64,000 nt of DNA. It comes from Novakomyces olei. Its lineage: Eukaryota. The notes below the pieces were generated by a model that was given only the letters and a program-made list of their open reading frames with translations, did no database searches and was not told where the DNA came from. Position 1 is the stretch's first letter. Each line of letters starts with the position of its first letter. Position numbers and translations under genes: made by a program. Below are positions 6,854-62,322 of the stretch, one piece after another. Location: positions 186,001 through 250,000 of the forward strand of contig JADEYG010000015.1 of the NCBI GenBank assembly GCA_016906335.1, written 5' to 3'.

Positions 6854-8251
6854 ATGTCAGTTATTACGGTGGATCATCAACGGTACGTTTAAATTCGGTC
6901 GAACGCTGATATACTTTTCATTTTCTGTCGAATAAACTTTGAAACTAACGCAGACAGCGATCAGGACTTTTCCAATGCTCTGCACGGTAAAAATGTGACA
7001 AAGCGCACTGGATTCCAAGCAATGTTGAAGAAAGACCGCAATGCTCAACGCGAACATTCAAAGCAATATTTTGATCTTTGGGAGAATGGCGATGGTACGT
7101 TGTGGGTATTTTCACCTATTAATTTTAGATACTGCTGCGTCCCAGGAGCGCGTCGACTTTTACAAGAAACTGACAAACTCTTATTATAACTTGGTATGAT
7201 TGTGCAGAATCGCTGGTTACATGATTTGTTTTTTTTAATATTTTGGTTTATCCCTTTTGATTGCTAAATGTTCATTCATTGTTCATTCATTGTGCTTTTT
7301 CAGTATAATCCTTATTTCTTTTCTTCCAACGTTTCGTACAGCCATCATTCTAATTCTGCTTAGGCTACCGATTTGTATGAGTACGGCTGGGGCCAATCAT
7401 TCCATTTCTGCCGATATTACGCCGGCGAAGGCTTTTACCAGGCGCTCGCTCGTCATGAGCATTACTTGGCCCTGCGTATGAACATCCCACCTGGAGCACG
7501 AGTTCTCGATGTCGGCTGTGGTGTTGGCGGCCCTGCTCGGGAAATTGGTCAGTTCACTGGTGCCAGGATCACCGGAATCAACAACAACGACTATCAAATT
7601 GAGCGCGCTCGGCATTATACGGAGAAACGCAATCTCTCCAACTCGATTGATTATGTAAAAGGTGACTTTATGCATCTGCCCTTTGAAGATAATACGTTTG
7701 ATATGGTTTATGCCATTGAGGCTACAGTACATGCTCCAAATTTGGAAGCCGTTTACAAGGAAATTTCTCGGGTGCTCAAGCCAGGAGGCACTTTTGGTAT
7801 GTACGAATGGGTAATGACTGAAAAGTACGATAATTCCAATGCCGCACATCGCGAAATTAAGCGCAAGATCGAGATTGGTGATGGAATTGCCGAAATGCAA
7901 CCTATTTCTGTTGCCAATGATGCTCTCAAGGCTGCTGGATTCGATATCCAGTATGCTGAGGATTTGGCAGAGACGGATACCTCTGATTTTCCTTGGTATT
8001 ATCCCATTGAAGGCGATTTACGCAACTGCCAGACACTGTGGGACATGTTCACCTGCTTTAGAATGACAAAACTGGGCAGATTTTTCACTCAGTCTTCCAT
8101 TGGCATGCTGGAAAAAATTGGCCTCGCTGGCGAGGGAACAAAAAAGGTCGGCCAGAGTTTGGCCGATGCTGCAGACGCGCTTGTTGCTGGCGGCAAGCAA
8201 AAACTGTTCACGCCTATGTACATGGTCATCTCCAAGAAGCCAGTTGCATAG
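6854..8251 (+). CDS. erg6: Sterol 24-C-methyltransferase; exons 6854-6882, 6958-7094, 7129-7193, 7364-8251
   Basis: YYNLATDLYEYGWGQSFHF, VLDVGCGVGGP, YAIEATVHAP, LKPGG and GGKQKLFTPMY motifs; GT-AG introns give an open spliced frame. Confidence 0.95.
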
Positions 8252-21340: not shown

Positions 21341-21537
21341 CAAATCTTTTGCTTAGACTAGAAGATTTGAAAACAAGAGACTTGGCTCAGCTCATCTGCC
21401 TGGATTGCCGTTGAGTGCTTGATTTAGTATCTTTACTCTATCAGCCCTTTGTTTACTATTTCAATTCTGCTTCAATTCTGCCTGAATTCTGCCTTTATTC
21501 TGCTTTTCCAAAACGCATTTTGATCAGTCAAGGTCCA

Positions 21538-22947
21538 ATGGGCTGTTGCAAAGCGTCACGGTGGCGCCGTGAACATATTCCAGACCACAAACTGCGGTAC
21601 ATTGATATTCATTCATACAGAAAAAAGACGTTTTCTAAAATTTTTGGGTACATCTTTGTTTATCTCGGAATCGGTCGTTCAGTGGCCATCTTGGGCTTTG
21701 ATATCTGGACGTGTATCTGTCTGATCGCGCTGAACCAATGGACTTCATCTGTTTCTACGGGAATATCCTTCAAAGTCATCCGTTGGCTGTTTTCCGCTTG
21801 CATTTTTCTCAGTATCCTTTTGCTCTTGTGGGACTGGTACGTGGCACGACGCGTAATTCGGTCCGGCGATGTTGCCTGTATTTACACAAACCTGATTGCC
21901 AATCGCTGGTACTGTTTGAAAAATTATTCTTATTTTTGCTTTTTCGATTCTCTTTCCAATGGCCGTGATTGCACGGACACTGTGGCCTTTTGGACTTTTC
22001 TCTCCTACACCGGGTACAAAAGGCTCATTCTCAGTGAAGGGCCCAGGCAGGTTATCAACGGCTATTCCCTTTACAAACTGCTGCTCGACCACCATTTCTC
22101 AACCAATATAAACGACTATACGAATCCGCCCCTCCGTTTTGTCGCTATTTGCTTCATGTGCCTTTCCATCCTGCTATGGCTCTTTTCAGCAGCACGAATA
22201 GTTATTGCCAGCGTGTTTTATTTGCCCTTGTTGTGTGCAATTCAAGGCAGCCTGGAGGATTACGTCTACCATAAAATCGACAAGCGAGTTGAGGCTCTGG
22301 CGGAAAAGAAACGAAGGCAACGCAAAGCTAAATTTGAAAACAACAAGTTTGCCGCTTCTCCTCTATCAGCCGCTGATCAAAAGCCGTTTGCCACAGCTGT
22401 AGTTAAGCCAACACTGCCAAAGATTGATTTCAACGAGTACGAAAAGGAGGAATTGGAATACGAAAAACTTGCGTTGGCTAAAGACGTGCAAAGACCTGCA
22501 CTTGCCACACAGCCTTCCTATGCTACACTGCCAGCGTATGAGCCCGTGCCTGCAATGGTCCAACCGGGTCTGCCTGTGCCTCCTTTGCCGAGCTATTCGT
22601 CCTCACAGAGGATGACTTCAAAGGCAATTGCCGAAGCACAAGCACCTAAATCTTATCGTGGAACTAGTGCTAAATATGGGCAAAATGACGCTCGTGATCG
22701 CGGCCGGGCGGTCGGCAACTACAGCAATTACCCGGACTCTTCAGGCCCAAGGTTTGAGAGAAATGCAGAAAGGCGTACAGGGGCACATGCGTTTAGCCAG
22801 GAAAACGATCCGGCAAGAAGGGCGGGAAATCTACCGCAAAATACGGTGGGCAATGCACAAAGGAGTACGGGACGTTTACCGACGCAGTCTCGCGGGTTCG
22901 AGTCTCGCCCGGTTCAACGGCAAGTGCAGAGAAAGTACCATGATTAG
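21538..22947 (+). CDS. Kch1/Prm6-family fungal potassium transporter-like membrane protein
   Basis: WRREHIPDHKLRYIDI N-terminus, TM segments, EGPRQVING, LEDYVYHKIDKR and KPTLP motifs; disordered C-tail; ATG at 21538. Confidence 0.75.
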   Translation: MGCCKASRWRREHIPDHKLRYIDIHSYRKKTFSKIFGYIFVYLGIGRSVAILGFDIWTCICLIALNQWTSSVSTGISFKVIRWLFSACIFLSILLLLWDWYVARRVIRSGDVACIYTNLIANRWYCLKNYSYFCFFDSLSNGRDCTDTVAFWTFLSYTGYKRLILSEGPRQVINGYSLYKLLLDHHFSTNINDYTNPPLRFVAICFMCLSILLWLFSAARIVIASVFYLPLLCAIQGSLEDYVYHKIDKRVEALAEKKRRQRKAKFENNKFAASPLSAADQKPFATAVVKPTLPKIDFNEYEKEELEYEKLALAKDVQRPALATQPSYATLPAYEPVPAMVQPGLPVPPLPSYSSSQRMTSKAIAEAQAPKSYRGTSAKYGQNDARDRGRAVGNYSNYPDSSGPRFERNAERRTGAHAFSQENDPARRAGNLPQNTVGNAQRSTGRLPTQSRGFESRPVQRQVQRKYHD

Positions 22948-25106: not shown

Positions 25107-25707
25107 ATGCAGGCGCTAAAGATCAGCAAGAAGTATCCTCAGCTGCCTCAGCAGGAAGTGTTTTCCCTCTTGGAACAGTTTCAAAAGCTCGATGTCGATG
25201 GTAAGGGATACATTGATCAAGCAACGACGATCAAGGCTGGCGAAGAGCTTGAGCATGTTCCGTACGACGCTTCACGGGCCGCTTTAAAGCGTGTTGAGCT
25301 CGATTCCTCAGGCCGCGTGGAGCAGGAGGATTTCGTAGATGTAAGCACAGATCTATTTGACTTTGCAATGGCTAACGCTTACAGTTTTTCTCTAAACTAC
25401 GTGAGGGCACAACACGAGCCGAAGCTGGCGAGGCAATTAAAGGCAAAATTACAATTCAAGGCAGTTCTGCGAGCGTGTCTCATACAATCAACGAGGAGGA
25501 GCGCCGCGAGTTTATTAAGCATGTCAACGCATCGCTTTTGGGCGATAAGGATCTTGGGAATCGTGTCCCCTTTGACACTGAATCTTTTCAGTTTTTTGAC
25601 GAGTGTACGGACGGACTTGTGCTGTCCAAGCTGATCAATGACTCTGTCCCTGATGTATGCATTTGAATTGTTTATTTATTTGTTTATTTGTTTATTTGTT
25701 TATTTGT

Positions 25708-25750
<43 letters not shown>

Positions 25751-27153
25751 TTTGTTAATTCACTCGTCTGCTTCCTTTCTTCTTTTTCTAATCGCAGACA
25801 ATCGACGAGCGAGTGTTGAACAAGCCCAAGGGCAAGAAAGCACTTTCGCCCTTCCAGATCACAGAGAACAACAATATCGTCATTAATTCCGCCAAATCTA
25901 TCGGTCTCAGTGTCGTCAATATCGGAGCCCAAGACCTGGCAGAGGGCAATGAGATCCTTATCCTGGGTCTGCTTTGGCAGATCATTAGGCGAGGCCTTCT
26001 TTCCAAAATTGATATTAAACTGCATCCTGAGCTTTACCGGCTGCTTGAAGAAGACGAGACTCTAGACCAGTTTCTCCGTCTCCCTCCAGAGCAGATCCTT
26101 CTTCGTTGGTTCAACTATCATCTCAAGGCAGCCAATTGGCATAGACGTGTGGCCAATTTTTCAAAGGACGTTGCCGACGGGGAGAATTATACAATCCTGC
26201 TCAACCAGCTGGAGCCCCAGCTCTGCTCTCGAGCGCCCCTGCAGACTCATGATCTCCTGCAGAGGGCGGAGCAAGTACTGACGAACGCGGAAAAGCTGGA
26301 CTGTCGCAAGTACTTGACGCCTACAGCAATGGTAGCAGGAAACCCTAAACTCAATTTGGCCTTTGTTGCCCATTTGTTCAATACTCACCCCGGTCTGGAC
26401 CCGTTGGAGGAGGAGGAGAAGCCAGAGATTGACATCTTTGACGCGGAGGGTGAAAGAGAGGCCCGTGTCTTCACTCTGTGGCTAAACTCTTTGGATGTTG
26501 AGCCGGCAGTGACGAATTTCTTTGAGGATTTGAAGGATGGCTGTGTGATTTTGCAGGCTTTTGACAAGATCGACCCGGGAAGTGTCTCGTGGCGCAGTGT
26601 TAATAAGCCGCCCGCTGATGGAAGCGAAATGATGAAGTTTAAAGCGATTGCAAACACAAACTACGCTGTTGACCTCGGCCTCAAGTCAGGATTTTCTCTG
26701 GTGGGTATTCAAGGCGCGGATATTACGGACGGGAACCGTTTGCTTTCCCTCGCTCTCGTCTGGCAAATGATGCGCAGGCATATTACAGTCACACTTAAAT
26801 CACTCGGCCAGGAAGGCAAAGAGCCCTCAGACCAGGATATGGTCAGATGGGCAAACGATACAGTCGCCCGCGGAGGGAAAAAGTCTCATATTCGAAGCTT
26901 CAAGGACGGCAATTTGCGGACGGGCGTCTTTGTGCTCGACGTGCTCCACGGCCTCAAGCCGGAATACGTCGATTACACCCTTGTTTCGCCTGGATCGACA
27001 GAGGACGATGCTACTGCTAATGCCCGTCTGGCTATTTCTATTGCTCGTAAACTGGGCGCTGTCATTTTCATTCTTCCCGACGATATTGTGCAGCTGAGAT
27101 CGCGGCTTATTCTTACTTTTTTCGGGTCTTTAATGGCTCTGCACCTTTACTGA
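25107..27153 (+). CDS. fim1: Fimbrin (actin-bundling protein); exons 25107-25340, 25385-25654, 25798-27153
   Basis: EF-hand-like N-terminus, HTINEEERREF, LSKLINDSVPDTIDERVLN, CH domains (LPPEQILLRWFNYHL, GEREARVFTLWLNSL). Confidence 0.97.
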
Positions 27154-49014: not shown

Positions 49015-49097
49015 GCCGTTGTGGCGTAGTTGGCTAACGCGTGGCACTTGTACTACATGCAATGCCAAGATCGTCGGTTCGACTCCGATCAGCGGCA
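49015..49097 (+). tRNA. tRNA-Thr(TGT) with a 9-nt intron (49053-49061)
   Basis: Acceptor stem GCCGTTG/CAGCGGC, D arm GCGT/ACGC, anticodon stem TGGCA/TGCCA with loop CT-TGT-A-[intron]-A, T arm GTCGG-TTCGACT-CCGAT, downstream T-run Pol III terminator. Confidence 0.9.
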
Positions 49098-51564: not shown

Positions 51565-54500
51565 TTACTGGCTGTAGCCCCAGCCGGTACCTGACCCATG
51601 CTGAGCACCCCCACGGCTCGCATAGTAAGGCGGCTGCCCACCGTAGCCTCCTCCAAAGCCATATGCCGGGTAGGCTCCGCCTCCTCCAGGAGCAGAACGG
51701 AACTGCGAAGTAGACGGAAAGGCTCCCGGAGTACTATTGCCTCCCTCACTAGACTGGCCGGGTGCTGTAGTCTCTTCCGCGGGCTGATAAGCCTTGTACT
51801 CCTCTGTAAAGGCGCTGTTCTCATTACCCTGAGGCATTTTTGTCTGTGAGTCTGGAGCATTAGCATTAGCACTTTGCTGGACCCTTTGATCCTGGGGAAA
51901 CCTCTGATCCTGTTGAAACTGGTAGCCCCCTCCATACTGCCCTGCTCTGTGAGAATAGTCTCCAGCACGGCCAGAGTACTGCTGCTGGTGGTCAAAGGGC
52001 TGACCATAATTAGGTACGGAAGTCGGTACCGATGTCGGAAGCGAAGCCGGTGGAGCCTGCTGTGAGTAAGGGGATTTTTGTTGGCCGGTATAGCCACCGG
52101 AATAGCCTCCCGTGTACCCATACTGGCCCATATAATAAGCAGTATAGGGATTATAATACGGATGCATCGGGTAATTACCCGCACCGCCAGACTGCTGAGC
52201 AGTTTGAGCTGAGGGCTGTTGCGGTTGAGGACTGGGGCCGGAATGAATTCCGCCTTGATCGGATAAGTTTGCCGATGAATAGTCGGCTGCAGTATAATGT
52301 GTCGGCAAGCCTCCCGTGGTGTCCCCTGAAGCCAGCTGAGCATTGCCTGAAGGCTGAGCAGCCTGATGTTGCTGAGCGTCGATTGCAGAAGGCTGCTGGT
52401 AAGAAGCAGCGGCTCCAGGATCGTAATAGGTATGATGAGAATAAGATCCTGAGCGGGGCTGCTGCTGTTGCTGTTGCTGCTGCTGCTGTTGCTGCTGCTG
52501 ACTATTATTATGATGAAGGTGATGCTGATCATAATATCCGGGGACATAAGAGTTTGCTGCGGGATCAAAGCTTGTCTGGTTGAATTGCTGTGGGTGAGTA
52601 TAGTCTCCAACATTGGTATCATAAATACTGCCTCCTCCAGGGGCGTTAGAAGCCTTGCTTCCCGGCTGGCCTCGAGCAGCAATATGCTGTTGAGGTTGTT
52701 GAGGCTGTTGAGGAACAGCATGGATTGGAGGAGTACTGCTCATAATCGGTGGAGTATGAATATGAACCGGCTGTGCTCTAGCAGCAAACGGAGACGCTTC
52801 CGTTCCAACAGCCGGGGCTTCAATAGCAGAAGGCCTGGGAGCAATTGAAGAAGGAGCCTCGGAGATTGAAAGGCTACCAAATTTCAGATTTGCAGACTCA
52901 GCAGAAGCATTGCCGTTCCCTCCAGCCGGACGCTGATCGTACAGGCCAGTAGGGCCCTTGTAGATAGGGAACATTTGCGGTCGGTACTCGTGGTGATGAT
53001 GGGAGGATGATACATTGTTAATTGCATCCAGATTATTCTCAGTCAGGGGGGCAGACTGGTCTTGCTGCCAGACAGAGGCATTAGCAGGCTCCACCGCCCG
53101 GAAATTATCCCTCCAAAACCCGGAGCCCGGTTGTTGAGTGGGCAGAGGAGAACTAGCGTTTGTAGAGGCGTTTGTATTAGTGTTTGTACTATTAGCATTG
53201 CCGCCTCGACGGGGAGCTGCCTCTTTATTTTCTCTAGCGACCATTGCCGCTGGACCCGTAGGAGGCGCAGGAGCAAAAGAAGTACCAGTGCCTTCATGCT
53301 TAGTTTCCGGTAGGGAGACTCTAGCCGCTGCTGGGCCAGACGGAACAGCAGCCGGTAACGCCTGTCTTCCTTGTCCTGATTGAGACTGAGACTGGCGTAA
53401 AGCAGCTGGCGCTGAGGGTACTTGAGCCGGCGTTGGCACTTCTGCCGGAGCTGCTGCCGGCTTTACAACATTGGCCCAAGACGCTTTTGTTCCCGGCGGG
53501 ATAGTTTTGGAAATGTTTGGCCGAGCTCCCGAAATCTCGCTCGTCTGTGCACCAGGAAATGTATTGGGTTCGAATCCCGTGACGCTGCTTGCTTTTGTAG
53601 CCGCATCGGACCAGCCAGAGATGGATCGTGTCTCAATGTTGTTGCTTACACTCGTAGCGATTGTATGGCCATCAAATGAGTTTGTATCCATAAATTTTGA
53701 TGTGCTGCTCGACGCAGCCTCAGTTGATTCGGGGACATTATTCGTATTTTGTCCTGCTGCTGCTGCTGCTGACCAGGAAGGTAAACCGGAACCTGCAAGC
53801 TGAGTGTGCTGAGTAGGGGCGGCTTCTGCTTTTCCGACTCTATTGTTCGCCCAAACGGAGTCTGTTCCTGCAGAGCCTGGGCCGGGCTCAGGTGCTAATG
53901 AGTCTTGCTCGGCAAGGCTGCCGTTAACAGCGGGCTGCTTACCGCCTTCCCGACGGTTTCGTGCAGGTTTTACTGCACTGCCACCCCGGGCCACATTCCG
54001 TGGGCCTTTGCTGCGTGTGTCTAATAGGTTAGCTCTGAAAACGTTGTATGCGCTTTGTAAAGGGAGAGGGAAGGCTAGAGGTGAAAATATAAGGTCAGAT
54101 AAGCATAGACACGGCTTCCATATTGAACAATATGAGCGTGAAGAAGACACGAGAGACATTCCCTGTCGGATAAAACGCAGTATTAAAATCAAAGAAAACA
54201 TGAGGCAATTGTGCAGAGTAGTGGAAAACTATGAATAGAAAGAAAGTTGAAATAAATGTCCAACTATAAATATGATTGCCGATCTATCATATGGCGTAAA
54301 ATAATAAAATAAAAAACAATCTAGAGCGTCATTACCATTACGCGCCTTATTCCGTTCACCAGCAGTTTTGACCGAGCCACGAGAAACGTCCGTAGCAGGC
54401 GAAGCCGTGTCTGCTGTGGCTGCACCTGTCCCCTTTCCAGGTTCGCCCACCCGGGTCCTAGGCTTTCGCTTTACTTGACCCCATTGTGAAACATGTCCTA

Positions 54501-55169
54501 TAATTCAGTCTTTGTTCCGTATAAACAATATAGAGCACGGCTGACAAAGAGCCAGATTTTCCGCCAAGAAGAAGAAAAAGAAGCAGCTATAAGACAGACA
54601 ATGTAGAGCCAAGGAAAGGGAGCAAGATAGTGATACAGAAGGAATCGGCATTAACTAAAACAAAATAAACGAGACTAGAGCAAGGTCGTTTGAAAAAAAA
54701 AACATGTTCAAAGACAGCCAGCTCCAAAAGATTTTTCCAGTAATGACCAGCGAAAAAAAAAAGATGGAAATTTGGAGGACGCAATACCTTCCGTGATCCG
54801 TGTAATAGTCAGATCAAGATCACCCTGAGCTTCGCTAAGTGCCATCACCAAATCGTCACCTGCCCAGTCCGGAAATAATTCTCTCAGCGTACTGATCTGA
54901 TCCGTCTTATTTTTTGCTTGATCGCGCAGCTCTGGCGACACGTCTGCCAATTGGTCTACAACGGCAAAAGAACCATGTTTTTGCTTGGCCTTTGACCCAT
55001 TTTGATGATTGTGATTATGATTGTGATTGTGACTGTGATGGCTGTGCCCATTCGCCGTCACTGCTGCGCTATCAGAATTCGTTCGTAAATTTGATGCATT
55101 GTTAGAAGGCCCTGTACGGTGTCCGCCGCCGCCGCGTCCACGTCGCGGTTTTGAAGCGACGTCCGACAT
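51565..55169 (-). CDS. def1: CUE-domain, Q/G/Y-rich RNA polymerase II degradation factor Def1-like; exons 55169-54788, 54497-54336 (or 54342), 54020-51565
   Basis: LRELFPDWAGDDLVMALSEAQGDLDLTITRITEG|HVSQWGQVKRK CUE domain; SWANVV motif; long poly-Q/Y/G low-complexity tail. Confidence 0.8.
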
Positions 55170-55890
55170 TGCCTGCTTGCTCTGCTGCACTAAACGAGGA
55201 AATTTTACACGTAGCCAGCCTCGTACTTGGTGCACTTCACACTTCAAGTAGGTCAATGTCTTGCGTCTAGTGCCTTGTAATTTTTAACTTTGAAGACGAA
55301 TAAGCCAGTGTGTGTACTATTATGTACGCGCATAATATATTTCCATTTTTTTTACTGGCAAGTATAGCGTTATCAATACTTGAAATTGCAATAATACATA
55401 CAATAATACGTACAATAATACGTAAATTAATACGTAAATTAATACACTATAGCACAGTTGGATGGAACAAGCAAAGGAATAAAAAATAATAAAACAAAAG
55501 AATTAAAATGAATTAAATTAAAATAGAATTTTCAATTTAAAACAGACAGGGCAAATCGTCTCGAGAATATTATAGCGTGAATATTTATCCAGTCCTTGTA
55601 ACAAGTCTGCCTTGTGGATTAAAGTCAGCCTTTCAGACAGCAAGCCAATTACACTGTCGTGGTGGGGCCCTATTTTCGACAAAACGATTAAATACCTCTC
55701 TACTCGTCGATTATAACTTTTTAATAATCCGTGCATGATTAAAAGACTGTGATATGCTCAAATTAATCTACAAACCCAAAATCTCGCACAATCCAATGTC
55801 CAGTGCTATTGTGCAAAAACAAACCAGATCCAAAAATCTCGAAAACTAAAAGTTCCCTTCACCAAAACTCAAATTCTATTCGTAACCTAT

Positions 55891-56768
55891 TTAATCTGTA
55901 CTTATAAAATCTTCAGATGTTGGAAACCGTAGACGCCGCCGTTCCGGAGTCGAAATTATTGAAGTTTCCGATTGCCTTCCAGTCTCTTGCGAGCTAGTGA
56001 AAAGCCTCCGTGGTGGACAAGCGTCGAATATACCTTTTTCTTTTGGTGCTTTACGTCGAATTTTCTTGCCCCGGCTGCGGCTGTTAGTTGGCAATTCTTG
56101 AATTAAATTTATTTAAAAAAAATGAAACAAAGATAAATTTAAATAACAAGGAAAGTATCTTATGGGAGAGCAACTTACAAGGTATAGATAATCGTTCCGT
56201 CTGCGTCCGGTGCCACATTGCTTTTCACAGACTTTGTAGTTGCTGATTTTGTGGATGAAGGTTCGTCCTCGAGAAACGGATTCTCCCCTTCCGCAGGGAG
56301 TGAAGACACGTCTTGTGGATCATGGAATAATGACTGTGGCTCTTTTTTTGGCGTTTCATTAAGCAATTCGTATAGCATTCGGCTTTTAGGCGGCCTAGAA
56401 ACTGTATTTCCCCGATCGTTTGAGACAATGTTTGACGCATTGGACGGGCTGCCTAAAAGTGCCTGTTCACGGCCATTTGATTGCTGCCGAAGCTCTTGTT
56501 TCTTTAAGCCAAGTTTATGATGTGGAGTTTTTACGGGCGTAATCGGCGCAAAAGACATTGGCCCAGAATGATGCTTTGCCGTCTCGGCTGATGCTGTCCG
56601 TTTCCCTGCTGAGATACCCTCATTGTACAATCTGTCTTCATTGTGATGCTTGTCAAGCTGCCGACGTTTTGTCCGCGGAGGACTATCAAAACGAGGGCCG
56701 TAGAGCGGCGTGGCGGGCGTTGGCGGCAGAGCGCTGCGTTTCGCTGGCGGCGTACGAGGCTCGTCCAT
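55891..56768 (-). CDS. rum1: CDK inhibitor Rum1/Sic1-like; exons 56768-56179, 56074-55891
   Basis: Many TP/SP CDK sites (PITPVKTP), ENPFL; splicing creates DGTIIYTFRGKKIRR followed by PRRLF, matching the Rum1 inhibitory region YVFRGKRIKK..KPKLLF. Confidence 0.8.
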
Positions 56769-57627: not shown

Positions 57628-58678
57628 ATGGCCGAGCCAGCAGACGACTTGAGGCGGTTACGTTTAGACGATGAGAATGAAAATAAAAAAATTGACGACG
57701 AATTACACCGCGCTGCGCTTGAACGCGAACTCGTTGGTATCCGCGCTCTTAACGCGACAATTTCAAATATGACGGGGTCTCTGCGAGCAGGAGTCGACAA
57801 TTTGCAGGTAGCTTCTCAAGATCGTCTGGCTTTATTCTTTTGATTATGCGTGGACCCTTCTAATATCCCCAAGGTACTTCATACATCTGTGCAAAATGCA
57901 GAAAAATTATTAGATCTATGGACCAAAGTACTTTCACAGTCCTATCATACACAGCGGCTTTTATTAGATCCGCGCTGGCACGGACAAACTAATGTAAGGC
58001 CAATTTGGTGTATGCGTCAAACTTTTGCGCACTAGTATCTCTGCTTTTACTGTTTTTTTCTCTGCTCTTTTGTCTTTGTTGAAAGAAGACGGTGCATGAA
58101 TGTTTGTGGCCTCTGACAGCACTGCTATTTTAGTGCATTAATGCGTTTGATATAGTATTTTAATTATCTTTCATCACTCTGCGTTTTTCAGGTTTGGGGT
58201 TACTTTCATACAGTTGCAATATCTCTTTTATTGCCCTTTCACAATATCATTTGATCGCGGACCTTTATAGGTGTATATACCACTTTTAATTCTAACTTTC
58301 CAGGACGAGGAAGAGCAACAGCGTATACAACAAAAGGCTTTACAAGCAGCACAAGAGGCAGAAACCGCACGCTTGCGCCGAGAAGAAGAACTGGCTCTTC
58401 AAGAGAAGCGTCAAGCGACAGCAGCAGCAGCAAAAGCAGCAGCCAGCAGCACTGCCTCTACTACCCCATCGCGGCGTGGCATTTCTCGTCTCTCTCGGCC
58501 CGGCCACTCTATACGTGGAAGCACGAGGGGCAGTGGGTTAGTACGTGGAACAGTCCGTTCAATACCAGGTTCAAGTACTGAAAGAGGTCGTGCAACAACA
58601 GTACGACGCGTCGTGCGGAGAGTTCCGGCTGGAACTGCTCGAGGTGGTGTAATAAGAGGCGTTTCAAGGAATTCATAA
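57628..58678 (+). CDS. duo1: DASH/Dam1 kinetochore complex subunit Duo1; exons 57628-57807, 57874-57993, 58304-58678
   Basis: LERELVGIRALNATI..NLQVLHTSVQNAEKLLDLWTKVLSQSYHTQRLLLDPRWHG; Arg/Gly/Ser-rich basic tail. Confidence 0.85.
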
Positions 58679-59127
58679 GATTTTGGGTTTAGCTATTGCA
58701 TTTTATAATTAAATGTTATTTTTCCTCCTTTTTTAAAATTTGCTTAATTCACGTTTTGCGGGCAATATCAAAGTCATTATTTTTGGCAGTCAATCTCTGG
58801 CAAGAGTTCGTTAGGCCAATATCAGGCCTTAAACAAACCAAATCATTTCTTATAAAGGCAAAAATCTGAGCAAATAATGGATCGAATGAACCGATCTATA
58901 CAATCTCGTTTGGAGGTGATTATCATCACGCTTTAGTTGGAGTTCTACGCAATGATATACGGTGAAACAAACTCAAGCTTGAAGATATGAATTAACAAAG
59001 CAGTCCGAGCTCAGACGAAATCAGAAAAGAAAATGATCGGTATAAAGAGCCTTCAGGTGATGCGCCATCGAGTGCACAACGCTCCAAAGCCTTTGTGTTG
59101 ATCGCGCAAAGAACCGGAATTCAATAT

Positions 59128-59305
59128 TTAGGCGATAACGCTGCTATTAGTAAAAGAATAATAAAAATGATTGAAGCAAACACAAATTCTCAACTTACCA
59201 TCCATAGTAAGGATGGGCGCGTTCAAGGTTGTTGCTCTGAGCGCCAGAGAAAAGGTCATCGGCCTTGTTGCCAGAGTCGGCGATGTTCTGTGCGATGGGC
59301 TGCAT
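59128..59305 (-). CDS. CaaX-type (M-factor/a-factor class) lipopeptide mating pheromone precursor, 39 aa; exons 59305-59199 and 59140-59128
   Basis: Spliced MQPIAQNIADSGNKADDLFSGAQSNNLERAHPYYGCVIA*; canonical 58-nt intron GTAAGT...TACTAATAGCAG splits the Cys codon TG|C; upstream TATA. Confidence 0.85.
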
Positions 59306-59389: not shown

Positions 59390-59400
59390 TGTTTATATAG
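59390..59400 (-). promoter_or_regulatory. TATA box of the pheromone precursor gene
   Basis: Minus-strand CTATATAAAC about 90 bp upstream of ATG 59305, followed by a CA/CT-rich leader. Confidence 0.7.
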
Positions 59401-59442
59401 ACATTTCTCTGGGTGTGCGCATGATTGTATAAAGAGCCTTTG

Positions 59443-59673
59443 TCATTCACTAGCCATTCACAACGTAGCATAGTCTTTTCAAGGACTGGGTTTGCCTTGC
59501 ACCTTGTATTTTGCCATTCAGAACCATTCACAGAACGTGCGCCGGTGAAAGACAGCCCATTCACACTTTGTAGTAAGGTTCTTATCGGATTACCTTTGCC
59601 CATTCACGAGCCATTCACGAATTCTAACGTGTTTTCATTCTGCGACCTTGGCCATTCACAAATTGCATTCACA
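59443..59673. promoter_or_regulatory. Array of nine CATTCA (six exact CCATTCAC) motifs upstream of the pheromone gene
   Basis: CCATTCAC at 59454, 59524, 59557, 59600, 59611, 59652; variants at 59443, 59514, 59665; all in the same orientation. Confidence 0.7.
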
Positions 59674-59863
59674 AATTCTCTACTGTTCTTTTATTGCTTT
59701 CCCTTTTGCCATAAACAAAAAGACGTTTCTATTTTTCCTACATTGTTTTGAAGGCTTCCCTTCGAGTCCAAGTATCTTCCTTTGTATTTGTTAATCCAGC
59801 TGAAACACAAAGGCTTTTGTCATTGGCTGCAATATACAAATTGAAGTCTTTTCACCCACCCAC

Positions 59864-59900
59864 CCATTCATTCATTCATTTATTCATTCATTCATTCATT
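59864..59900. repeat. (CATT)n tetranucleotide repeat
   Basis: CCATTCATTCATTCATTTATTCATTCATTCATTCATT visible directly. Confidence 0.85.
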
Positions 59901-60592: not shown

Positions 60593-62322
60593 ATGAATTC
60601 TGCATGGAAAACAACAGCGGCAGCAGTTGCCACTGCTACTGCTTTTATTCTATGGCGTTCATATCTGGCTCCATTCAGTGCGACGGAGAAAAAACTGCTG
60701 CAAAATAATGGTGAGTCCGCAAAAGAAGGAGAAGAGAGAAAGGATAATTATTTAATGAAAAATATACATTTAATGAGCAGTTCGTTCGCGGCAATTTTAT
60801 CACGTATAGTTACTGACTTTCAAAAGTAGAGTCCGAGTTTCTACGGAAGAATTCACGAAGGCTTATATTTGCGCTAGCCGATGTCGATGACAGCGGTACC
60901 TACGATGTACGCGTCTTTGCGCACAATGTGACGCGTCCAGTAACCGTTGTTTTCATACACGGGTTGGGCGGCAATGTGCAACAATGGGAGCCTCAATTAC
61001 GCGCTTTCTGCGACCAAGGCTATGGCGTAGTAGCCATAGATCTACCGGGCCACGGTGCGTCAGCTTTTGCTCCCAAACAGTGGGCAAGCTATGAGAGCAC
61101 ACGGCTCGTACGTGTAATAGAACACTGTCTACATACTCTAGGGCTGGCAAACAAGATTGTTTTGGTAGGACATTCTATGGGGTGCCAGTTGGTGGGCAGA
61201 CTGGCGTATCAGTCTGGCAAAACCAGCAAACAAGTCGCAGTTGACGGCAAACAGGTATTGAGCAATATTACTGGTGTAGCACTTCTCGCTGGCCGGGGCC
61301 CCGTGCCTGTAACCTCGGAGATGGCAGCCGTGCGAAGGATGGTTAATATACCGGATTTTTTGTTCAACGCGTTCCGTCGTCGCGATCGGGCGGAAGGTCC
61401 CGATTCTAAGAGCGTAAGGAGAATGGTATCAAGCACGGCTTCGCGGTCTGTACGCACGCAGCAACTCGTATGGAATTTGATGTCAAAGACTCCAGTATGG
61501 AAACGGACAGTGAGCGGTTTAAAGCCGGCTACTGCGGCTGAATGGCAGGAATTGCGAGTACCCGTGCTTGTAATTGCCGGTCAAGATGTAAGTTTATTTG
61601 CAATTACTTCTATAAAGGAGTGCCTGGACAAGTGTGGTCAACACAGCCCTGGTTTGTCCGGCTCTTGTGGTTTACACCTATCATTTGTATCCTTGTCGCG
61701 TCTCTTTAGTTGACACAACAGGACCGTGTTGCACCGCCTGAACAGTCCGAGCTAATAGCAAAGCTGGTCCCAAATTGTCGTGGATACGTTACAGTTCCCA
61801 ACGCCGGACACAGTCTTATGCTCGAAGCACCAGAAAAGGTTTGTTTTGTAGATTTTTATTGTCTTGAGGCCTGTAGTCTACGTATCCAAAAGCGCGGTAA
61901 CGCCATTCTATTCATTCTTCTCTCCTATGCTCTTAGTGTGTCTATACATTATTCTGGCGAGTTTGCTTTGATTGTTCACATTTTTTCATTTAAGCATATA
62001 AATTCAAATATTGTTTTACATTATATTTAATTATTATTATCGTCGCATTTAACATTTACTTGAATTTTACTTGTTTTTACACGTATTTTTAATTAATCTC
62101 TATTTTATTTCTATTTTATTTCCATTTTATTTCCATTTTATTTCTATTTTATTCCTATTTTATTTCTATTTCGCTTTTGTCCACCCGTATAGAATATATG
62201 CGCCTCGACAATTCTGCCTTGTGCGATGTCGGCGCAGCGCCTCCAAGCGTCTCTTTATTCCATTGGACAAAACTGACTTTCAGATCAATGAATTGCTACT
62301 CTCGTTCGTCGCGTCACTGTGA
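60593..62322 (+). CDS. Alpha/beta-fold hydrolase with an N-terminal membrane anchor; exons 60593-60710, 60830-61587, 61722-61838, 62284-62322
   Basis: FIHGLGG oxyanion motif, DLPGHG, GHSMG nucleophile, AGQD|D acid, GHSLMLEAPEK His; open spliced frame. Confidence 0.9.

Follow-up and report, generated by a model that had tools for sequence, protein, structure and literature searches.

The closest described counterparts of the locus reported here are the small genes for lipopeptide mating pheromones of the a-factor/M-factor class. We analyzed 64,000 nucleotides (nt) of Novakomyces olei DNA (assembly GCA_016906335.1, contig JADEYG010000015.1, positions 186,001 to 250,000 of the forward strand), a stretch called the window throughout, whose first letter is position 1 of all coordinates. 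On its minus strand, at 59128-59305, an earlier reading of the letters alone (the original prediction) had proposed a two-exon pheromone precursor gene with a CaaX box.

In Schizosaccharomyces pombe, the mfm1-3 precursors comprise 41-44 amino acids with a hydrophilic extension of 30-32 amino acids and a CaaX box (passages including PMC2134810). The mature M-factor is YTPKVPYMC(Far)-OCH3, cleaved after Asn, and the mfm genes carry introns (Srikant, Gaudet and Murray 2021 bioRxiv; below Srikant 2021); the original prediction had named the M-factor and an mfm intron, and the mature form and the presence of introns were confirmed in the papers. The candidate resembles this system in its short precursor, hydrophilic extension, CaaX box, intron and Pro-Tyr near the Cys. 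Unlike the three mfm genes it is a single copy in the window, and no similarity was detected beyond PY...C in searches that contained no Mfm precursor sequence. According to the original prediction, the S. pombe M-factor precursor further ends with CVIA and has a GNK in its pro-region, and the mfm intron may lie at the Cys codon.

MFA1 and MFA2 of Saccharomyces cerevisiae encode precursors of 36-40 amino acids with a CaaX box, an Axl1-type cut after Asn, cytosolic maturation and export by Ste6, with the cleavage context KDN in S. cerevisiae and EDN/ADN in K. phaffii (PMC5993090). Precursor size, CaaX box and an Asn before the mature part are common to the candidate, MFA1/MFA2 and other Saccharomycotina MFA genes. 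The candidate further shares an N-terminal MQP and the CVIA end with MFA1/2. In contrast to the candidate, the S. cerevisiae a-factor genes are intronless, and the mature peptides are unrelated in sequence.

The a-factor ORF (open reading frame) YlMFA4 of Y. lipolytica is interrupted by an intron, was missed by an ORF-based pipeline and was recognized by the fit of its intron to the species' own 5' splice site, branch-point and 3' splice site rules (Srikant 2021). The candidate is likewise hidden by an intron and argued from the splice rules of its own genome. However, the identification of YlMFA4, unlike that of the candidate, relied on intron-less paralogs and was backed by a quadruple deletion (Srikant 2021). 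The mfm genes and YlMFA4 thus provide a precedent for intron-containing pheromone genes missed by ORF searches.

Basidiomycete pheromones (Ustilago mfa, Cryptococcus MF-alpha) have a CaaX box, an extension without signal sequence and farnesylation (PMC2134810). The CaaX box and the N-terminal extension without signal sequence are found in the candidate as well. The basidiomycete genes sit in pheromone/receptor mating-type loci, whereas no receptor was found among the scanned translations of the candidate's window. HMG-type pheromone response elements similar to ACAAAGG are located around Ustilago pheromone genes.

Gene structure and predicted peptide

The predicted gene consists of the following parts.

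59199..59305, minus strand: exon 1; ATG at 59305-59303, 35 codons plus TG of the Cys codon
59141..59198, minus strand: phase 2 intron of 58 nt with 26% GC; GTAAGT at 59198-59193, TACTAAT at 59152-59146, CAG at 59143-59141
59128..59140, minus strand: coding part of exon 2; C GTT ATC GCC TAA

Every coordinate of this two-exon anatomy was reproduced by reading the minus strand and by scripts. Joining the exons by script yielded a coding sequence of 120 nt for 39 amino acids, with MQPI at the start and CVIA at the end. Exon 1 covers the hydrophilic pro-region and the larger part of the predicted mature peptide; exon 2 finishes Cys36, followed by V-I-A and the stop, resulting in the CaaX box CVIA. 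The branch A of the candidate intron is position 59147, within TACTAAT. An alternative acceptor absent from the original prediction, a TAG ending at 59144, lies 3 nt 5' of the CAG, and its use would give ...GCSVIA. The unspliced frame of 36 amino acids is the sole entry at the locus in the ORF list, so the gene is hidden from the ORF track, as had been stated originally.

Judging from the sequence, this locus is probably an unannotated two-exon precursor gene for a farnesylated, carboxymethylated lipopeptide mating pheromone of the a-factor/M-factor class. The original reading as a farnesylated pheromone was supported in part, namely by gene-likeness, promoter architecture and peptide features, all at the sequence level.

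A published sieve for a-factors uses a CaaX-stop, a length of less than 100 amino acids and an N-X located 5-20 residues before the Cys (Srikant 2021). With 39 amino acids the candidate falls below 100 and into the typical range of 20-45, and given the CAG acceptor it ends with CVIA and TAA. Asn residues are found at positions 7, 13, 25 and 26 and the Cys at 36; the predicted cleavage sites N25-N and N26-L leave 11 and 10 residues to Cys36, respectively. An N-terminal extension without signal sequence is a feature of the class (Chen et al. 1997, PMC2134810). The extension of the candidate is hydrophilic and free of signal-sequence features (grand average of hydropathy -0.42; maximal 9-residue hydropathy of 0.27 within the first 25 residues). 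Overall, the candidate fits the class description in the passages of Heistinger et al. 2018 (PMC5993090) and Chen et al. 1997 (PMC2134810). The best published predictor is a mature peptide conserved in relatives or present in multiple copies (Srikant 2021). A basidiomycete-like ER cleavage site in the candidate, also suggested originally, is speculation.

Promoter and flanking repeats

The regions upstream and downstream of the candidate contain the following elements (negative numbers are relative to the ATG).

59392..59399, minus strand: TATATAAA box (TATATAA at -94), 94-87 nt 5' of the ATG
59430..59680, minus strand: upstream array of four composite modules, starting at -366, -312, -225 and -155
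59437..59443, minus strand: ACAAAGG, an HMG-box-type core at -138, fused to module 4
59086..59099, minus strand: AACACAAAGGCTTT in the 3' flank, 29 nt past the stop; second copy of the ACAAAGGCT element
59804..59817, plus strand: AACACAAAGGCTTT in opposite orientation, about 500 nt 5' of the ATG
59040..59053, minus strand: AAGGCTCTTTATAC, an exact 14-nt direct repeat of the promoter sequence 59427-59440, beside the ACAAAGG core

The 95 nt before the ATG contain no further ATG and 6% G. Each module is made up of GTGAATGG, a gap of 3-7 nt, (G)TGAATG and then (G)CAAAGG or a near variant, and the alignment of the modules shows 16 invariant columns. A single GTGAATGG is found at -258. Eight of the 12 copies of GTGAATG in the window are located at 59444-59672 (-139 to -367), all on the minus strand and hence in the orientation of the gene. 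The paired box TGAATGN{3,8}TGAATG yielded 6 matches in the window at an expectation of 0.10, a number reached by none of 100 shuffles; four lie in the candidate promoter, a fifth in the (AATG)n microsatellite close by and the sixth at 7273. For ACAAAGG, 13 copies were counted on both strands of the window, three of them within the 730-bp locus of the candidate. The sites 59086-59099 and 59804-59817 form an exact 14-nt inverted pair.

The M-specific promoters of S. pombe, including those of mfm1-3, contain M-boxes (ACAATGGG/ACAATAGG; a pair in mfm2) along with a Ste11 box AACAAAG, and for S. pombe mating genes the Ste11-box is given as AACAAAGAAA (PMC1693924). Short paired boxes together with an HMG CAAAG box are also present here. 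In contrast to the mfm promoters, GTGAATGG takes the place of ACAATGG, and the box abuts the CAAAG core, while both are 1.5-2.5 helical turns apart in S. pombe (PMC1693924). We take the likeness of the promoter architectures as a lead and not as a test. The GTGAATGG/CAAAGG modules might form a cell-type-specific or a pheromone- or starvation-responsive enhancer, with an HMG-box factor binding to the CAAAG core.

Two further repeats were observed. The start of the intron at 59176-59195 (GAGAATTTGTG...), after the donor, is 85% identical to the start of module 1 at 59665-59684, which may be chance or a copy of the element in the intron. At 59865-59900, about 560 nt 5' of the candidate, an (AATG)n run is adjoined by (GGGT)3; this microsatellite has the hexamer TGAATG in common with the promoter boxes.

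Coding potential and expectation by chance

For an estimate of chance occurrence, we used a pattern composed of an ATG-initiated ORF of 15-100 codons, a GT[AG][ACT]GT donor, an intron of 38-300 nt, a YAG acceptor and Cys-aliphatic-aliphatic-X-stop. The candidate locus is the only structure of this kind in the real window, while 200 first-order Markov simulations gave a mean of 0.07 per window. When a CTRAY branch at most 12 nt from the acceptor was added, 0 of 200 simulated windows matched. The loose pattern is expected by chance in a whole genome, and independent features therefore matter. A codon table was derived from 20 long ORFs of the window, 19 of which are supported by Pfam. With this table, exon 1 reached a coding log-likelihood of 15.3 bits in the predicted frame and at most 6.9 bits in the remaining five frames. 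It ranked first among 94 ATG-open 35-codon stretches outside long ORFs, with runners-up that include probable true first exons, e.g., at 57628 and 60593. Its score was also above that of 92% of 233 windows of 35 codons taken from real genes. The GC content at third codon positions was 0.66 in exon 1, compared to a mean of 0.48 in the genes of the window. None of the contiguous CaaX-stop ORFs elsewhere in the window was precursor-like.

These values bear directly on the explanation that no gene exists, i.e., that an ORF and splice-like signals arose by chance in the 1.3-kb divergent intergenic region, and that the motifs belong to the neighbouring alpha/beta-hydrolase gene or derive from a microsatellite. 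The loose pattern was found in 7% of the simulated 64-kb windows and a whole genome would contain some instances, TGAATG can originate by slippage in the (AATG)n run, and the homolog searches with exon 1 (see below) came up empty. However, the coding score in the right frame tops all 94 null stretches, the branch geometry is right where no simulation provided a match, and a TATA box and an ATG-free leader are present at the candidate. Moreover, the modules face the small gene at 140-370 nt from its ATG, but are more than 900 nt away from the hydrolase ATG (about 60593, plus strand). We regard a chance structure as unlikely.

Splice signals

Seven reference introns were rebuilt, either by joining the frames of ORF pairs with Pfam support or by tblastn searches with homologs of fimbrin. 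Distances were counted between the branch A and the G of the acceptor.

Fimbrin intron 1, 25341-25384: 44 nt, tail GCTAAC...CAG, distance 9
Fimbrin intron 2, 25655-25797: 143 nt, tail TCTAATCGCAG, distance 6
MnmE-type GTPase intron 1: tail ACTAATGGCCAG, distance 7
MnmE-type GTPase intron 2: tail TTCTAACGGCAG, distance 6
SRP receptor alpha intron: tail GCTAACCTTTAG, distance 7
MutL-like gene intron: tail CTGACAATAAAG, distance 8
Neighbouring alpha/beta hydrolase intron, 60711-60826: 116 nt, distance 10

In all seven supported introns the acceptor G follows the branch A at 6-10 nt, and in none of them does another AG intervene. The branch site of these introns is strong, with the sequence CTAAY (or CTGAC), while the donors vary (GTAAGC, GTATGC, GTGAGT, GTATGA, GTAAGT). 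The sites behind the rule are the fimbrin and hydrolase introns with the coordinates above and 14601, 15143, 35128 and 11708, with lengths of 44-241 nt. The rule on branch-acceptor spacing is useful for gene prediction in N. olei in general.

In the candidate tail ACTAATAGCAG, the CAG is found at 6 nt from the branch A, equal to fimbrin intron 2, while the alternative TAG at 3 nt is nearer than in any of the seven supported introns. The spacing favors the acceptor that produces the CaaX box, without proving it; splicing to the CAG at 59141, and hence the CVIA end, is thus the favored prediction. With an intron of 44 nt in the fimbrin gene, 58 nt are not too short.

A transcribed locus might nevertheless give a product without CaaX box, either via the TAG acceptor, leading to ...GCSVIA, or via intron retention, leading to 36 amino acids ending with GW; the CVIA would then be coincidental. 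This explanation draws on the fact that the TAG at 59144 is the first AG past the branch A, and that the unspliced ORF ends directly after the donor (TGG TAA). Yet the G of this TAG is only 3 nt away from the branch A versus 6-10 nt in the supported introns, and branch-proximal AGs are generally skipped by the spliceosome. Furthermore, chance would rarely place a Cys-aliphatic-aliphatic-X-stop in frame directly behind an intron typical of this genome. A product without CaaX box appears quite improbable to us.

Homolog searches and window context

Several observations weigh against a pheromone gene at this locus. The upstream AG at 59144 abolishes the CaaX box if it is used for splicing. With its E, R and H residues, the predicted mature peptide exceeds a-factor in polarity. 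Within the 64 kb, tblastn revealed no paralog (next-best match at an E-value of 0.22), and searches of protein, family, atlas and metagenome data did not yield a homolog. There is no mating gene nearby, as the 40 scanned translations of the window belonged to housekeeping families only. The repeated box is GAATG, versus CAATG in the S. pombe M-box, and promoter motifs are described as poor predictors of true pheromone genes (Srikant 2021).

A protein homolog search with exon 1, padded with 5 in-frame leader codons to 40 amino acids, gave no candidate. Pfam did not match exon 1 up to an E-value of 10. Using phmmer against 1.84 billion representatives, 3 matches were obtained at E <=0.001, with no credible homolog among the two inspected. 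These two were tandem-repeat proteins, in which a chance match of 13-19 residues was multiplied, and were rejected; the third (P0151) came without an aligned stretch. The ESM Atlas gave no usable match for exon 1. Scanning metagenome contigs with a peptide pattern yielded 349 matching stretches, of which 0 were confirmed at E 1e-3 or better, a threshold out of reach for a homolog that shares just the mature part of about 10 residues. The metagenome contigs contained 0 matches to the degenerate DNA pattern of A-H-P-Y-Y-G-TG|GTRNGT.

For the window context, Pfam was run on 40 ORF translations. These cover one ORF of 71 amino acids and 39 of the 48 ORFs that reach 150 amino acids; the 9 omitted overlap longer ORFs. 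Among these translations neither a receptor nor an HMG/MAT gene, an ABC exporter or a prenylation gene was found. The families identified were vigilin-like KH, AP mu, Erg6-type sterol methyltransferase, PRPP synthetase, MutL, MnmE, TPR protein, zinc-finger protein, KCH, bZIP, fimbrin, P450, RRM splicing factor, SRP receptor, mRNA triphosphatase, Snf7, Yif1, NAC, aldo-keto reductase, inositol-phosphatase-like, Def1-like CUE protein, hydrolase and CitMHS transporter. Pheromone genes of ascomycetes are unlinked to MAT. A window free of mating genes therefore fits a pheromone gene, yet gives no positive support for it.

Proposed mechanism and biological role

By analogy, the a-factor pathway of S. 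cerevisiae and the M-factor pathway of S. pombe (PMC5993090, PMC2134810, Srikant 2021) suggest a possible mechanism. Transcription would proceed from the TATA promoter via an HMG-type factor and a GAATG-binding factor, and removal of the 58-nt intron would complete the Cys codon. A Ram1/Ram2-type transferase would farnesylate Cys36, Rce1 or Ste24 would remove VIA, and a Ste14/Mam4-type enzyme would methylate the new C-terminus. The leader would be cut by an Axl1/Ste23-type protease after Asn26 (or Asn25), leaving the 10-mer L27-C36 (or an 11-mer). The peptide would then be exported by a Ste6/Mam1-type ABC transporter and sensed by a Ste3/Map3-type receptor on the partner cell.

A real prenylated micro-peptide could also act outside mating, e.g., as a secreted or membrane-anchored signal. 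The tie to mating is by analogy alone, and no mating genes are present among the scanned window translations. On the other hand, fungal peptides of about 40 amino acids that combine a hydrophilic leader with N-X and CaaX are described only as mating pheromones in the cited passages (PMC2134810, Srikant 2021), and HMG-type CAAAG cores are found on both sides of the candidate. A role other than mating thus seems very improbable.

Finally, gene models reaching beyond the predicted exon 2 were considered. Among 173 downstream AGs, a continuation of more than 23 codons is reached only with introns from 743 nt upwards, and the long continuations take introns of at least 2.1 kb across an opposite-strand gene. 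Since longer continuations demand outsized introns, no other gene model is attractive. A larger gene that begins with exon 1 and uses a distant acceptor is extremely improbable, as the acceptor at 56734, which would open a 186-codon frame, takes a 2,465-nt intron spanning a plus-strand Duo1-like gene (57628-57843), whereas the supported introns measure 44-241 nt and the near acceptors all run to a stop within 23 codons.

Phylogenetic placement

N. olei is a compact, intron-poor fungus without a close relative in the databases. In a search of 5.8 billion proteins its fimbrin exon was at most 76% identical to any listed match; among the matches listed, Schizosaccharomyces japonicus and S. pombe showed 76%, Lipomyces oligophaga 75%, and Lichtheimia and Umbelopsis 73% identity. 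In a single-gene fimbrin tree of 36 rows, N. olei was sister to four Schizosaccharomyces (Shimodaira-Hasegawa-like approximate likelihood ratio test 97), on a long branch of 0.43. It did not fall into a group of 19 rows with 99% support, which consisted of all 11 named budding yeasts and 8 further rows. The approximately unbiased test retained a grouping with two Mucoromycota, outside the ascomycetes (p 0.32). N. olei is probably an early-branching ascomycete, perhaps a member of the Taphrinomycotina.

A KCH-family protein (fungal potassium channel) at 21415-22947 on the plus strand had its best matches not in ascomycetes but in Mortierellomycota and Neoconidiobolus, at only 29-36% identity. 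The KCH tree was uninformative, as long branches dominate and paralogy is possible. These matches suggest either a divergent paralog or an odd phylogenetic position.

The candidate might go back to one ancestral gene with the mfm genes and survive in a deep, otherwise unsampled lineage, still with the CaaX box and the Cys-codon intron and under the control of a hitherto undescribed bipartite enhancer (two GTGAATGG plus CAAAGG, in four copies). We consider such common descent rather unlikely. If it is true, the candidate would be the first lipopeptide pheromone for a lineage whose precursors were called unassessable: for Taphrinomycotina besides fission yeast (Pneumocystis, Taphrina), a passage of Almeida et al. 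2015 (PMC4313921) calls pheromone precursor genes not assessable. Should the lineage be located outside Dikarya, farnesylated peptide pheromones would be older than Dikarya.

Lipopeptide pheromone genes are often missed, being tiny and fast-evolving. An intron that splits the CaaX box makes a gene invisible to ORF tracks and to CaaX-stop pipelines, and the authors of such a pipeline themselves state this blindness to intron-split genes (Srikant 2021). Pheromone searches should model introns, using the species' own branch-acceptor spacing. The candidate offers a testable entry point into the sexual cycle of a poorly sampled fungus, and the four-fold upstream module can serve as a search key for the remaining mating regulon.

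Further observations in the window

The small ORF at 57628-57843 on the plus strand showed a weak DASH/Duo1 match (E 0.005). It is convergent with the 3' end of the candidate, and the 3' ends of both may lie close together. Inside fimbrin intron 2, a long (ATTT)n microsatellite occupies 25670-25755. A tRNA of 83 nt at 49015-49097 on the plus strand (56.4 bits) was found by Rfam and missed by ARAGORN in default mode; this tRNA gene probably contains an intron. An ORF of 887 amino acids at 51565-54228 on the minus strand had no Pfam match and is located 3' of a CUE-domain exon (54708-55283, minus strand). The ESM Atlas groups this ORF with CUE proteins similar to RNA polymerase II degradation factor 1 (Def1), with scores of 0.92-0.93.

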